Shown here: positions 36,349 to 47,312 of the stretch, in pieces | Numbering within the stretch: the first letter of the stretch is position 1 | Layout: each line of letters opens with the position of its first letter | Source: a virus | Lineage: Duplodnaviria; Caudoviricetes | Virus record (IMG/VR): IMGVR_UViG_3300049828_000271 | Coordinates: 1 to 48,854 of that record | Direction: 5' to 3' (one strand) | DNA length: 48,854 nt | The notes under the pieces: generated by a model | The model's input: the letters and a program-made list of their open reading frames with translations, nothing else | The model's database searches: none | What the model was told of the DNA's origin: nothing | Program-made: the position numbers and the translations under genes

Positions 36349-36941
36349 CAAGTTCTCAACTGATAGAAAATGTGGTTTCCAATCTGGGCTACTCGTTCCA
36401 TCTGCCGTGACCATCTAGGTCTAATGTAATTAGCGTGATAGAACAATGTGTCTGTACCTATAATAGCAGATTTCGTGCCATAAAGCAAGACCTCTTCTGC
36501 GACTGCGTAAGCTTGTTCATAAGCTGACTTAGACTTAGGAACGTCTGGTCTTCCGTCTAATGTCCATGAGAACTGAGCTACCTTGCGTCCAGTGCGCCGA
36601 TCCTTATTCTGTTGCCAGACTACGCCACATACCGTCTTAGGGTATTGTGGATGTTCGACACGATTGATCGTGACCTGTGCGACTGCAAGCTGCCCCTCAT
36701 ACGGTTCACTCTTTGCTTCGAAGTAAATGTTGTCTGCGAGACACTTTACTTCTTTTGCGGGAACGTCTGCCGGAATGCGAACAGAGGGTGCCATTACAGC
36801 ATCGTAAATGTTACCCAGTTCAACAATAAAATTGCTGATGGAACTTACGATGGGAATGGGTTGGTTAGTTTCTGCCATGACTGGCTTTGTCAATAGAATC
36901 ATTACAAGTATCATTAGTCGGCGCATGTTATTTTCCTCCAT
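36348..36941 (-). CDS. Cell wall hydrolase (SleB/Hydrolase_2 family) with a signal peptide
   Basis: CLADNIYFEAKSEP..GQ.AVAQV..NRV....YP.TVCGVV.Q, QFSW and FYHA.Y..P.W...IGNHIFY. Confidence 0.9.
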   Translation of the reverse strand: MEENNMRRLMILVMILLTKPVMAETNQPIPIVSSISNFIVELGNIYDAVMAPSVRIPADVPAKEVKCLADNIYFEAKSEPYEGQLAVAQVTINRVEHPQYPKTVCGVVWQQNKDRRTGRKVAQFSWTLDGRPDVPKSKSAYEQAYAVAEEVLLYGTKSAIIGTDTLFYHANYIRPRWSRQMERVAQIGNHIFYQLRT

Positions 36942-36955
36942 GGTTGCGACTTCTT

Positions 36956-36984
36956 AAAAGGACAAGGGGAGTCGCCTCCCCTTG
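36956..36984 (-). terminator. Intrinsic terminator after the tmRNA
   Basis: CAAGGGGAG-GCGA-CTCCCCTTG followed by TCCTTTT. Confidence 0.75.
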
Positions 36985-37295
36985 CCGTTGATCCTTTCTG
37001 TTGCCAAGAGGATCATGCTCCGTCTAGATCAGGCAGCTAGTGCCATTTCCTGCGAGTAAGTGCTTTCGTTTGCATTTACAGTTTTTGCGCTGATTAAGTC
37101 AGTCGCCTCTCTAGTGGTCCGTTCCGCTATCTTACCCTGTCGAAACCTTGACTGCCCCATCAGAATCACAATCCAAATCTTTAAGCCTTTCACTTGTTAA
37201 CTGAGGACGCCTTCAAACGGTCGCCTACTGGATTGTGATTTTGGTGGAGCAGGCGGGAGTCGAACCCGCGTCCAAGACACCTTCACTTCACATCA
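36985..37295 (-). ncRNA. ssrA: Circularly permuted two-piece tmRNA: acceptor piece about 37295-37242, intervening segment 37241-37159, coding piece 37158 to about 36985; tag ANESTYSQEMALAA
   Basis: GGACGCGGGTTCGACTCCCGCCTGCTCCACCA precedes GGGGCAG...TTCGAC. The 7-bp acceptor stem has G3.U. The resume context is GTAAAT-GCA AAC and the tag (37073-37029) ends LAA-stop. Outer ends are approximate. Confidence 0.92.
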
Positions 37296-37311
37296 TACCA
37301 CTATAATCGAA

Positions 37312-37431
37312 TTACTTGTTCTTCCTTTCTGCCCACCATGTCTTGACCGTAGCGACCAAAACAGTGAACCAAACTGGTTGAGGTAGTAGCCATCCAACGG
37401 CTAGTCCGACGAGTGCTGTTAAAATTGTCAT
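37312..37431 (-). CDS. 39-aa membrane peptide
   Basis: MTILTALVGLAVGWLLPQPVWFTVLVATVKTWWAERKNK; starts directly after the PagL-like stop. Confidence 0.55.
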   Translation of the reverse strand: MTILTALVGLAVGWLLPQPVWFTVLVATVKTWWAERKNK

Positions 37432-43690: not shown

Positions 43691-43704
43691 AATTTAGTAA
43701 GTGT

Positions 43705-44050
43705 GAAAATTCGACGGGAGCGGCGTTAGTATATTGCGCCTAGTTGTGCCGCTCCCGTCGTCGTTTCTATCCTCTTCCCATGTGCGCCGTTGCGGTCCTA
43801 TCCTTAGATGGTATTGACCGCACGGCGCGATTCAGTTTTCCATCCGTAGCAATCTCACTCGGTTAGCGCAGTCATGCTGTTAGTGCGCACCCCACCGGTT
43901 AATGTGTCGGCTCACTTGGCTTCGTTCCTAGCGGGGTCATTTTGCTAGGACCGGTCATGGTGCTGTGCGCGGCTATCTAGGTGTCACCACAACTTACCCC
44001 TAGACGCAACCGTTACCGTGTCAACTACAAGTCCGTTTCCTCACTCTGTA
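43705..44050 (-). ncRNA. Unidentified structured RNA or long leader of about 340 nt
   Basis: ORF-free and GC-rich, with stems at 43712-43760, 43784-43828, 43926-43950 and 43970-44012; directly downstream of a promoter. Confidence 0.6.
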
Positions 44051-44055
44051 ATACC

Positions 44056-44151
44056 AGTATATCGAAACAGCACCGAGAACACAATATTAAAAAGCCTTTT
44101 AATATCAGTAACTTAGATTAGTCTTATAATCCTAACGAAATCAAGCACTTA
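44056..44151 (-). promoter_or_regulatory. Promoter with an upstream AT palindrome and two IHF-like boxes
   Basis: TTGTGT-17 bp-TATACT (44084-44056); inverted repeat 44084-44105; AATCAAgcacTTA (44139-44151) matches WATCAANNNNTTR; TATCAGtaacTTA (44103-44115) has one mismatch. Confidence 0.6.
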
Positions 44152-44240: not shown

Positions 44241-45614
44241 TTAGAGGCTCGTATTGTACCTTACCTGACTAAAATAGGTGTCCCTGAGTAGCCTACCATC
44301 CGAGAATACCGGGACTAGGGCATTTTCCACAGTCTCGTCATAACCAATGGTTCTATACTCATTCCTTTCGTGAATGACCGTGAAGCGTCCACCTTTCGAC
44401 TTTTTCGAAGCCTGTCCAACTGGATTCTTCGAAACGTCACGCCATACACCGTCGATTCTGATTGCCGAAGCTTTCATTGCAAACTCTTGCGTGTCACGAT
44501 TCATGTGCTGTAACAATGCACCACCCATACCAAATGCGATGTTGTCGGCTGAGTAACCATGCGACTGATAATTCATCAGAATCGCTTCAATGGAACTTGG
44601 GTTTACACCATCACCCTGAATGATGCGAACGTGATTAAGGACTTTGAATCCTTTCGCGTTCACAGTATGTCCAAACTTCGCGTCAAGAATCTTAATGACG
44701 CGCAACGTGACTGCGACCGGATCACCAGAATCAGGACGAACTACAAGAGTTGCGCCAGAGTCGATAACCTGTTGCTTGAGGGATTCACCCCAGATGTATT
44801 CACACGCCTTGTAAATATCGTAGGAGTCAGAGACAACCGCGAAGATGGCTCCCGGCTTACCGTACTGATTCACCATGTTAGTGTATGCAGCGATTTCACC
44901 AACTGTCGATTTACCCCACGTAGTGATCGTGGAATGTTCTGCCGCAGGGATTGAGAATCCTGCCATTGGCTCGTTGTAGTATCTACGTGCAGCGAGTACA
45001 CCTTGCACTGTGTCAGAACCTTGGAAGTTGACCAGATGCGCCATGCCACCGAGGGCTGCGGATTCGTTGGACGATACACCACGCGCACCGAAGTCATGCA
45101 GCTTGAATGGCAGTCCGGCAACATCACCCGTCGCTTCAAGATATGCTTTGATGATCGTCTTGATGTGATGTGAGATTGTTGCAACGGTCGTTGGATACCA
45201 GACTGCGCGAAGCAGTGCAGTTTCCAGATAGCTCGTCAACCAGAAACATTTTGGATCAGTGTTGACGATGGTAACTAGCGGAGTGCCAACCGGGACGATC
45301 AAGCCTTCTGCAAGTGCGTCGATATCAACTGGCAGCTTACCATCGTAGGTGTTGAGAATGTATTCCCAACCTTCACGATTGAATGGCTCACCATGTGACT
45401 TGAAAAACTGGTCAGCTTCATCAATGTCTGATTGCGTGAATGCTTGCCCCACAAGGTATTCCTTGAGGAACGCTTGCAAGCCGAAGAATACCGTTGCGTC
45501 GTGAAGACCGCCGCGAGATTCGATGTATGAGTAGACGTACTCTGTTCCCGGTGGATATTGGAGCCAATGGGAAGCCTTGTACGAGTCTGTGTTTAGTAAT
45601 AAGTTGGTACGCAT
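44241..45614 (-). CDS. nadV: Nicotinamide phosphoribosyltransferase
   Basis: TDSYKASH..QYP, LHDFGARG, SIPAAEHS, VSDSYD, VRPDSGDP, IQGDG and FGMGGALLQ...RDT..FAMK. Confidence 0.95.
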   Translation of the reverse strand: MRTNLLLNTDSYKASHWLQYPPGTEYVYSYIESRGGLHDATVFFGLQAFLKEYLVGQAFTQSDIDEADQFFKSHGEPFNREGWEYILNTYDGKLPVDIDALAEGLIVPVGTPLVTIVNTDPKCFWLTSYLETALLRAVWYPTTVATISHHIKTIIKAYLEATGDVAGLPFKLHDFGARGVSSNESAALGGMAHLVNFQGSDTVQGVLAARRYYNEPMAGFSIPAAEHSTITTWGKSTVGEIAAYTNMVNQYGKPGAIFAVVSDSYDIYKACEYIWGESLKQQVIDSGATLVVRPDSGDPVAVTLRVIKILDAKFGHTVNAKGFKVLNHVRIIQGDGVNPSSIEAILMNYQSHGYSADNIAFGMGGALLQHMNRDTQEFAMKASAIRIDGVWRDVSKNPVGQASKKSKGGRFTVIHERNEYRTIGYDETVENALVPVFSDGRLLRDTYFSQVRYNTSL

Positions 45615-45661
45615 GATAAACTCCTTATCTTGCTGTTGTGGAGAGTGGGTCTATCCCACTC
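45612..45661 (-). promoter_or_regulatory. Two-hairpin RNA leader of nadV
   Basis: GAGTGGG-ATAGA-CCCACTC followed by GATAA-GGAGT-TTATC-ATG. Confidence 0.7.
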
Positions 45662-45836
45662 AGATTTCGATGGTGACAGATACTTCGGTTATGTCTGGAC
45701 CGCGACCAAATTGAGTTTCCCGTGTGGTGAATTCAACCTTGTCGAAAATGATATTTTCGTTCTTGAACTTATCCTTGATGATTGCCTTGACGCACTCTTC
45801 AAGCTGTTCTTGCGTAAATTTCACTTGTAATTTCAT
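45660..45836 (-). CDS. 58-aa protein between natV and nadV
   Basis: MKLQVKFTQEQLEECVKAIIKDKFKNENIIFDKVEFTTRETQFGRGPDITEVSVTIEI; AGGA ribosome-binding site. Confidence 0.65.
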   Translation of the reverse strand: MKLQVKFTQEQLEECVKAIIKDKFKNENIIFDKVEFTTRETQFGRGPDITEVSVTIEI

Positions 45837-45840
45837 GATA

Positions 45841-46926
45841 TTATCCTAGACCTAAGAGGTCTGTTACGATATGGTAGTGATCTTCGAACATCTGTTCCTG
45901 CATTCTGATAAACTCATTCAGCGGAATCCATTTTGCACTTGCTACATCATCTGATCCTTTTACCTTGGGGAGAGTTTTCTCACCGATCAGGTCAAAGTGG
46001 AATGCCGTAGTAATTGTGCGTCCGCGCAAGCTTCGCGAAGGATGATCGTATCGCTTTTCTTTGCGAATCGAACCGCGCAGCTTTGCAGGCGGCACCTTGA
46101 TTTTGGTTTCTTCCTCTAGTTCACGAATTGCCGCAGCATCGACTGTTTCGAACTGATTGACGAATCCACCCGGCATTGCCCACAAGCCTTCGCCCGGTGC
46201 AGCCTTGCGCTGTACAAGTAGAATGTGTCCGAGGCATGTGACCACCGCATCGGCTGTTACAAATACTGGCGGATAGGGAGCCTGTGACCATTGCAGCTTA
46301 TAGGTACGAATGAATTCGAATTCCTTTACAAGCTTGTCGTATTCTTCTGGATTGTGTTCAATCAAATCATCCATGTACTCTAGGACTTTTTCGGGAACAG
46401 AACGTGCAACAATTTTGCGACCATTATTGCTCCATGCTGAATCACCGTTAAAATAGAGTTCACGAACATAAGTGGAATCGAGTCCATGTGTATTCTCCAT
46501 TTCGATCTGATCCCAATTTGGGAAGAGGTCGAGATAATAAGACGTTACATCTTTGTGATGACCTACTAAGAAAATGTTGGGGAGGTCATACCAACCATAT
46601 GCACTTTGATATGCTTTATCGACTGCGCGTTGAACGTCTTTGATCCACGCCAGTTCATTGTAGGGGTTGTCTGAAATGGAATCGAACATGAGTCGTCTAC
46701 GTTCTGCAACGTCGAAGCAATCTTCGATCATGTGTTTACGATCAAGTTCAGAGAATGGATTGCGTGTGTCGGACGGCTTGAAAGCAGAACCGATTAGAAT
46801 TAGCACTCTATCTGAGAATTTCAGTGCTTTGCGAATGGTGTCGATATGCCCGTTGTGCGGCGGCTGAAAACGCCCGATGAACACGGACATTGGTGGAGGT
46901 AGCGAGGCTGATGTTGTCGTTGTCAT
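45841..46926 (-). CDS. natV: Bifunctional NMN adenylyltransferase/Nudix hydrolase
   Basis: [25 protein letters not shown], Nudix box [31 protein letters not shown] and FEDHY.I. Confidence 0.93.
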
Positions 46927-46972
46927 TCTAAGGCTCCCTTAGAGTTAGTAAGCTTGGGTCTATCCCTAGCTT
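46924..46972 (-). promoter_or_regulatory. Two-hairpin RNA leader of natV
   Basis: AAGCTaGGG-ATAGA-CCCaAGCTT followed by TCTAAG-GGAGC-CTTAGA-ATG. Confidence 0.7.
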
Positions 46973-46980
46973 GTGTCTAC

Positions 46981-47009
46981 AGTATATAGCTAATTGGTCG
47001 CCTTGTCAA
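46981..47009 (-). promoter_or_regulatory. Sigma70-like promoter of the natV-nadV operon
   Basis: TTGACA-17 bp-TATACT. Confidence 0.8.
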
Positions 47010-47089
47010 GTGCCAAATAACAGCAAGGCACCGATACCTATAACTATAATTAGAACTGCCATTGCGATTTTGTCTGCGTTGATTTTCAT
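47006..47089 (-). CDS. 27-aa membrane peptide
   Basis: MKINADKIAMAVLIIVIGIGALLLFGT; GGAGGA ribosome-binding site. Confidence 0.5.
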   Translation of the reverse strand: MKINADKIAMAVLIIVIGIGALLLFGT

Positions 47090-47090
47090 G

Positions 47091-47312
47091 TTATCCTCCG
47101 AATATCATAAACAGCCCTACAAGTACGGCAAGAGCTAATGCCATCAGAGCAAGTTTAAGGGCAATAATAAAGATGATCCAGAATGCCCAACCCAAGCCGA
47201 TTACGACTGCGGCGACGATTGCGACAATTACCGGAATCGCGATCAAAAAGAGTAGAATACCGATTCCAACGGCTTGCCAAATTGAGGGGTCAGTTACGAT
47301 TGTAGGGTCCAT
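47091..47312 (-). CDS. Very hydrophobic membrane protein
   Basis: About 60 nearly uninterrupted apolar residues; GGAG ribosome-binding site. Confidence 0.6.
   Translation of the reverse strand: MDPTIVTDPSIWQAVGIGILLFLIAIPVIVAIVAAVVIGLGWAFWIIFIIALKLALMALALAVLVGLFMIFGG

Follow-up and report, generated by a model that had tools for sequence, protein, structure and literature searches.

A two-hairpin leader RNA before the NAD-salvage genes natV and nadV of phages and bacteria, possibly read by NadM-Nudix

The DNA analysed here, the viral record IMGVR_UViG_3300049828_000271 (the window, 48.9 kb at its full length), is a piece of a T4-like myophage genome with gp32, a helicase loader and tail and baseplate families. 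Its minus strand carries, in this order, natV, a 58-aa open reading frame (ORF) and nadV (Table 1), and a pair of small RNA hairpins, the element under study, stands directly before each of the two enzyme genes of nicotinamide adenine dinucleotide (NAD) salvage. The natV product matches PDB entry 2QJO with an E value of 1e-77, and its predicted AlphaFold model (pLDDT 95) superposes on 2QJO with a TM score of 0.89. Homologues of nadV are found in 2017 phage records. The two genes are the NARP2 pair as described in the accessible part of Osterman et al. (10.1101/2024.02.11.579819); within the 48.9-kb piece a Nampt gene is accompanied by a gene for a nicotinamide mononucleotide (NMN) adenylyltransferase, and no Prs-like gene adjoins them.

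Table 1. Features of the natV-nadV locus in the window.
Feature	Positions	Strand	Basis
Candidate sigma70-type promoter TTGACA-17-TATACT for the natV-orf58-nadV transcript	46981..47009	-	11/12 consensus
natV leader hairpin 1, AAGCU-A-GGG-AUAGA-CCC-A-AGCUU	46950..46972	-	fold; homologue covariation
natV leader hairpin 2, UCUAAG-GGAGC-CUUAGA, -7.2 kcal/mol	46927..46943	-	fold; homologue covariation
natV (NadM-Nudix; NMN adenylyltransferase and ADP-ribose pyrophosphatase, 361 aa)	45841..46926	-	Pfam CTP_transf_like and NUDIX
58-aa ORF, unconserved insert	45660..45836	-	no Pfam or PHROG match
nadV leader hairpin 1, GAGUGGG-AUAGA-CCCACUC	45643..45661	-	fold; homologue covariation
nadV leader hairpin 2, GAUAA-GGAGU-UUAUC, -2.0 kcal/mol	45615..45629	-	fold; homologue covariation
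nadV (nicotinamide phosphoribosyltransferase, Nampt, 457 aa)	44241..45614	-	Pfam NAPRTase and NAMPT_N

In the natV leader, hairpin 1 presents the loop AUAGA (46963-46959) on a G-C closing pair and holds a 1x1 A-A internal loop, and hairpin 2 carries the Shine-Dalgarno (SD) sequence inside its loop GGAGC (46937-46933), with the AUG next to it at 46926. The nadV leader likewise shows an AUAGA loop closed by G-C (45654-45650), followed by the SD inside the loop GGAGU (45624-45620) and the AUG at 45614. The loop-to-loop distance is 26 or 30 nt in the two leaders. The minimal leaders (56-60 nt) gave folding z values of -3.71 for natV (0/200 shuffles) and -2.97 for nadV (1/200), and longer stretches (76-91 nt) gave weaker values of -2.26 and -1.63. 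A first-pass annotation of the window had described two hairpins with common loops on differing stems before both genes, and both leaders fold as claimed; it does not mention that the 58-aa ORF ends with a stop codon (45662-45660) overlapping nadV hairpin 1. The annotation had also placed the natV copy at the predicted +1 of a promoter. The candidate promoter is present and ends 9 nt ahead of natV hairpin 1, so that the hairpin starts about 1-3 nt past the expected +1, a position that is itself predicted. A second TTGACA-17-TATACT site, with both hexamers identical, lies at 41360-41332 on the minus strand. A pattern search of the window returned the natV and nadV leaders as the sole matches at up to one mismatch; at up to two mismatches there were 10 matches versus 6.5 expected, no excess over chance.

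Homologous loci were collected by protein homology from viral and metagenome contigs. Both hairpins were found in 37 of 78 unique natV leaders and 59 of 119 unique nadV leaders (96/197 in total), and hairpin 2 was scored in 61/78 and 84/119, respectively; among other SD-bearing ORFs of the same loci, the control, both hairpins were found in 3/369 and hairpin 2 in 12/369. A motif-first scan of viral contigs fixed the top of hairpin 1, the SD and the ATG and left hairpin 2 pairing free. Among the matches listed, at least 208 were unique, and hairpin 2 was present in 83 of the 88 that precede natV or nadV and in 21 of the other 120, 10 of these 21 belonging to small ORFs within 1.5 kb of natV. 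A scan of GTDB yielded 120 matches, with hairpin 2 in 33 of the 34 ahead of natV or nadV and a four-pair hairpin 2 stem in 12 of the other 86. The bacterial carriers include Campylobacterota, Thiothrix, Moraxella osloensis, Microbulbifer, a cyanobacterium, a member of the Polyangiaceae and a Rhodospirillales metagenome-assembled genome (MAG). The covariance model R2 was run over 26 whole phage records and five bacterial genomes, with 150 candidates scored per bacterial genome and several of the matched leaders in its training set; of its 27 matches, 26 immediately precede natV or nadV and the remaining one precedes the ORF upstream of natV. On the window R2 found only its two training copies. 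It gave no match in BUCT-ZZ01, RSP15, R10Z, the L027 contig or G194, blanks that are weak evidence because R2 misses loop variants. The expectation that the element would recur before homologues is thus borne out at natV and nadV in both phages and bacteria.

Judged from folds, the full motif is present in the cultured phages Synechococcus phage B23, Roseobacter phage DSS3P8 and LucasX, variants of it in RSP15, BUCT-ZZ01, RSL1 and RaK2, and hairpin 2 alone in GAP161, Taquito, Aeh1 and Yut2 and, weakly, in R10Z and phiM7. By the same criterion the motif was not seen in CcrPW or before nadV of 50AhydR13PP, and by folds and R2 it was not seen in five prs-nadV (NARP1) phages or Mx1. The two genes can sit about 44 kb apart, as in R10Z. 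Small unrelated ORFs stand between leader and natV at L085, L086, L089, L092, L101, L112, L113, L120, L136, L163 and L669, so that the motif now heads the first gene of the operon; two of these ORFs were scanned and gave no Pfam match. At a bacterial MAG locus (L531:301-350) the full motif lies ahead of what we take to be an SPFH-like gene, with nadV nearby.

The covariation test took 251 unique leaders from loci selected by protein and used AUAGA and GGA as anchors, with pairing not required. Pairs 2-7 of hairpin 1 were Watson-Crick in fractions of 0.87, 0.83, 0.65, 0.73, 0.71 and 0.80 of 112 leaders (shuffled 0.25-0.34). Pairs 1-6 of hairpin 2 reached 0.95, 0.93, 0.95, 0.90, 0.88 and 0.73 of 105 leaders (shuffled 0.74, 0.61, 0.50, 0.30, 0.28 and 0.33), and pair 7 was at chance level. 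All four Watson-Crick pair types were found in both stems and G-U pairs are tolerated. Alignment A1, whose 67 rows were chosen for pairing, gave a covariation score of 0.70 compared with 0.18 when shuffled and at most 0.12 when slid; percent-paired figures on A1 and part of the results on the 205-leader set are inflated, as rows there were picked by pairing or pattern. Because the stems covary with all four pair types, selection works on the RNA level, on two helices plus loops, and the view of the element as an RNA structure and not a DNA operator stands. Recurrence and covariation in homologues together exclude chance as the explanation. The loop spacing is 25-32 nt in 183 of 205 leaders, hairpins 1 and 2 have median free energies of -7.95 and -3.8 kcal/mol, respectively (n=246), and the conserved structure overlaps the ribosome-binding site, as in autogenous operators. 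Where nadV directly follows natV (L009, L014, L015, L016 and L371), the natV coding end contains a conserved hairpin of eight pairs, its five-base loop differing in sequence, near the place of hairpin 1.

On the same data, it is hardly tenable that the element is a DNA operator bound by NrtR or a similar transcription factor. NrtR controls nadM-nadV, the same target genes, in Synechocystis, according to the accessible part of the NrtR study (PMC2330246), and the core of hairpin 1 is a short palindrome. However, NrtR is a separate winged-helix protein on DNA, whereas the motif is an RNA downstream of the promoter; it lies downstream of the -10, its arms vary over the four pair types, and pairing is kept while arm sequence is not. 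At L560, L561 and L567 a separate palindrome resembling the NrtR consensus stands upstream of the hairpins, and the RNA would there be a second layer of control.

The loops behave differently from the stems. Hairpin 1 carries AUAGA in 87 of 110 scored leaders, with the variants ACAGA, AGAGA, AUGGA, AGUGA, AAAGA, GGAGA, GUAGU and GCAGU, and hairpin 2 carries GGAGU, GGAGC, GGAGA, GGAUU or GGAAC; the pattern common to both is five bases, purine-N-A-G-N. The loops also exchange roles, as L350 has GGAGN and L022 has AUAGA in both hairpins, and phages RSL1 and BUCT-ZZ01 have an AGAGA or AAGGA loop in hairpin 2. Within one genome the hairpin 1 loop class is the same at natV and nadV in 61 of 71 pairs (kinship ignored), whereas the stem arms of the two leaders are barely above random likeness (0.34 vs 0.29; 0.40 vs 0.38). 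Some lineages retain hairpin 2 without hairpin 1. Since the loops are interchangeable and the loop class, unlike the stems, is common within a genome, we infer from these sequence comparisons one reader with two equivalent sites, encoded by the same genome. It seems quite improbable that there is no dedicated reader, with hairpin 1 guarding a processing site or the 5' end of the mRNA and hairpin 2 serving passively as a brake on initiation and as its link to upstream translation. Such an arrangement would accord with the natV hairpin 1 loop beginning 11-18 nt past a -10-like hexamer in 65 of 130 leaders (a count without shuffle control) and with nadV hairpin 1 often overlapping or abutting the upstream stop codon, but it leaves unexplained the AUAGA kept across phyla on changing stems, the fixed loop size of 5 nt and the loop sharing within genomes.

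Comparison with Rfam 15 returned only the tmRNA for the whole window at gathering score, one IsrM match on the opposite strand (E 5.7) for 45400-47200 at E<=10, and tRNA plus four weak matches to unrelated families for eight homologous loci at E<=5. No Rfam family matches the leaders, in agreement with the earlier remark that they do not resemble the nadA or pnuC NAD riboswitches. The NAD+-I (nadA) and NAD+-II (pnuC) riboswitches likewise place NAD genes under RNA control, but they serve other genes and have larger conserved cores. PyrR offers an enzyme-derived regulator, and the C-AGAGA-G variants of the motif resemble the PyrR binding loop; PyrR, however, is a type I PRTase that works through transcription attenuation, whereas the motif has no terminator, and the AGAGA-loop locus L006 gave no PyrR match in Rfam. 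No description of the motif was found in the literature, in a search whose coverage left out most subscription journals and some key supplements, so that a prior listing is possible. The accessible supplements of PMC2864571 contain no nadV or nadM term, and the supplementary files of PMC10690425 that were searched gave no match, three files being outside the search. The motif is real and widespread, a cis-regulatory RNA that is apparently not yet catalogued.

The motif shares its layout, two small hairpins that have similar loops and are joined by a variable linker, with the guanidine-II (mini-ykkC) riboswitch, as far as the accessible part of PMC7266159 describes it, and both elements lie near the start codon. 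In a riboswitch of this kind the loops would dock around NMN, NAD+, ADP-ribose, nicotinamide or phosphoribosyl pyrophosphate (PRPP) and thereby change access to the SD. Such a metabolite would function in any host, and the narrow loop spacing is consistent with docking. We nevertheless regard a riboswitch as unlikely, as very few bases are conserved, the hairpin 2 loop is variable, hairpin 1 is often lost while hairpin 2 is kept, and the motif is gone where the same NMN pathway uses another adenylyltransferase. An anti-SD switch, with the 3' strand of hairpin 1 pairing with the SD, was rejected, the longest complementary run being 3.39 compared with 3.44 with swapped partners in 205 leaders. 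The guanidine-II loops are ACGR tetraloops, whereas the loops of the motif have five bases and none is ACGR; the SD inside loop 2, the dispensable hairpin 1 and the lack of an Rfam match are further differences.

That a host RNA-binding protein reads the loops, be it CsrA/RsmA or some other general factor, is very improbable. CsrA/RsmA sites have GGA in each hairpin loop, and the motif resembles them in the GGA of the hairpin 2 loop over the SD, in its two sites per leader and in some hairpin 1 variants (C-AUGGA-G); CsrA was found in three of five motif-bearing genomes. However, the dominant upstream loop AUAGA contains no GGA, CsrA was not found in the other two, the cyanobacterial and Polyangiaceae drafts (completeness unstated), and cyanophages carry the motif too. 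A general factor would also not limit the motif to two genes or tie it to one enzyme family. CsrA/RsmA, which the first-pass annotation had named among its candidates, is accordingly disfavoured, and so is the 58-aa ORF: it is an unlikely reader, as it has no homologue but itself among 31-102-aa proteins (best local match E 2.2) and the gene content between natV and nadV is hypervariable from phage to phage. An apparent likeness of this ORF to small ORFs in L293 and L048 found no support.

Among the readers proposed, NatV is the best supported, through its co-occurrence with the motif. Across 197 NadV rows, the motif and canonical NadM-Nudix occurred together in 142 and neither in 42, with the enzyme only in 11 and the motif only in 2 (184/197 concordant), and carriers of the motif are spread over the NadM-Nudix tree and several phyla. 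In bacteria picked by NadV homology (50 loci, one without a readable leader and about 30 from one order), the motif was found at 31 of the 33 loci where a canonical nadM-Nudix gene lies alongside and at 1 of the 16 where none does, and this one sits at a contig edge. Canonical NadM-Nudix is not encoded on the motif-negative nadV contigs, of which five are 90% complete or more. nadV has no motif when its partner adenylyltransferase is Nudix-less (L008, L019 and Mx1), and the motif is missing from eight of nine loci with a divergent adenylyltransferase-Nudix fusion family of 305-330 aa. This fusion stands beside nadV at L004/L619, L026, L038, L063, L065, L075, L076, L079 and L361, and these loci look like a separate NARP2 subtype. 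The view that motif-negative phages have no adenylyltransferase was wrong: most encode a divergent or Nudix-less one, and so have the NMN pathway but not the RNA. L413, with the motif before nadV and PnuC/NadR adjoining, was considered as a counterexample and rejected, since a canonical NatV lies about 35 kb off on the same contig. Within NatV, 102 motif-positive proteins retain a Nudix-domain patch (G233, K277, V/K282, G285, K321 and K323) that five motif-negative ones have mostly lost.

Several observations weigh against NatV as reader. Supported branches provide 6 independent contrasts, of which 3.9 on average were concordant and 0 opposed (p ~0.125), and a separate phage comparison with divergent or Nudix-less adenylyltransferases gave 3. 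The scored motif is missing at 11 of 153 canonical-NatV loci, and at L065 a stem like that of hairpin 1 is present although canonical NatV is not. The Nudix patch draws on about three independent negative lineages and could be explained by oligomer state or substrate binding; residue-versus-loop scores were 0.57 for NatV K321 (permuted 95% 0.53) and 0.56 for NadV column 6 (0.51), and with these scores and so few negative lineages the patch is only a lead. The literature searched holds no report of RNA binding by NadM-Nudix, and NadV too is present in every checkable motif-bearing genome. The case for NatV in the first-pass annotation is thus favoured by co-occurrence but has few independent contrasts behind it.

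Because NadV is always present too, NadV or a NatV-NadV complex is a possible reader in place of NatV alone, though we think this fairly improbable. NadV is a dimer, and four stand-alone nadM-Nudix genes (L568-L571) have no motif; every NadM-bearing phage also has NadV, according to the accessible part of PMC9503650. Nevertheless, 42 nadV loci have neither canonical NatV nor the motif, some of them nested among positive clades, and genomes L569/L689 and L570/L688, with NadV and a patch-less NadM-Nudix, have it at neither gene. In addition, NadV has no basic patch comparable to that of NatV.

We therefore return to NatV and propose, with about even confidence, that the two hairpins are an autogenous translational operator bound by NadM-Nudix (NatV) that would restrain the synthesis of both enzymes. 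Operators read by their own product include T4/RB69 gene 43, E. coli thrS and the MS2 coat hairpin, and the thrS operator has two related stem-loops for a dimer. The motif is like them in its small hairpins at the ribosome-binding site, conserved loops, variable stems and likely feedback. It is unrelated to them in sequence. Its proposed reader is a metabolic enzyme that acts on small molecules and is not known to have a nucleic-acid substrate, and this reader would control two genes that can be as far apart as in R10Z. Free hairpin 2 is weak and would open for the ribosome. A NatV oligomer, probably via the Nudix domain, would hold both loops, more firmly at hairpin 1, and bound NatV would keep hairpin 2 closed. 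Such feedback, presumably repressive, would cap both NatV and NadV, and the NatV grip might relax, through binding of ADP-ribose or another ligand or through falling NAD+, once host defence destroys NAD+.

A need for such control is suggested by the accessible part of the NARP preprint (10.1101/2024.02.11.579819), in which NARP2 overproduces NAD+, consumes PRPP and is toxic or uncloneable in E. coli, whereas NARP1 is self-limiting and produces no NAD+ excess; the NARP1-type phages examined have no motif. A likeness to NrtR bears on the effector. As far as the accessible text of PMC2330246 goes, the Nudix domain of NadM is closely like the ADP-ribose-sensing domain of this repressor, and ADP-ribose weakens DNA binding by NrtR. 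By analogy, and more tentatively, NadM-Nudix might moonlight as an RNA-binding repressor whose Nudix pocket is filled by ADP-ribose from host NADase defence, freeing the hairpins; we consider this extension possible but doubtful.

Other features lie in the window and at homologous loci. A permuted (two-piece) tmRNA is phage-encoded at 36938-37334 on the minus strand with the tag ANESTYSQEMALAA; it matches the betaproteobacterial family, a hint of a betaproteobacterial host. A noncoding stretch 3' of nadV, at 43700-44070 on the minus strand, is a candidate new structured RNA, with a z of -5.3 against shuffles for 43700-43985, 78-87% conservation over up to 490 nt in four related contigs, compensatory changes at 14 of 82 predicted pairs (5 sequences) and a TATACT hexamer on its 5' side; Rfam gave no convincing match for it. 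ORFs that we take to be macrodomain-like, from the motif they carry, occur between natV and nadV, inside the NAD-salvage operon, in a single phage group (L029, L033, L034, L365, L382, L386 and L406).

NARP2 lets phages reverse NAD-depleting bacterial immunity, and the leader RNA is a candidate control on NARP2; the literature found gives no account of how a phage limits this pathway. The element is short (50 nt), and its carriers include the cultured phages DSS3P8 and B23 and a cyanobacterium with an enzyme closely like 2QJO. If NadM-Nudix reads the motif, a structurally solved metabolic enzyme would have an unnoticed RNA-binding role. Should ADP-ribose in addition release the hairpins, the phage would sense the immune destruction of NAD and turn on its counter-defence at translation, and this would amount to an NrtR-like control exerted on RNA by the enzyme itself and common to phages and bacteria of several phyla.

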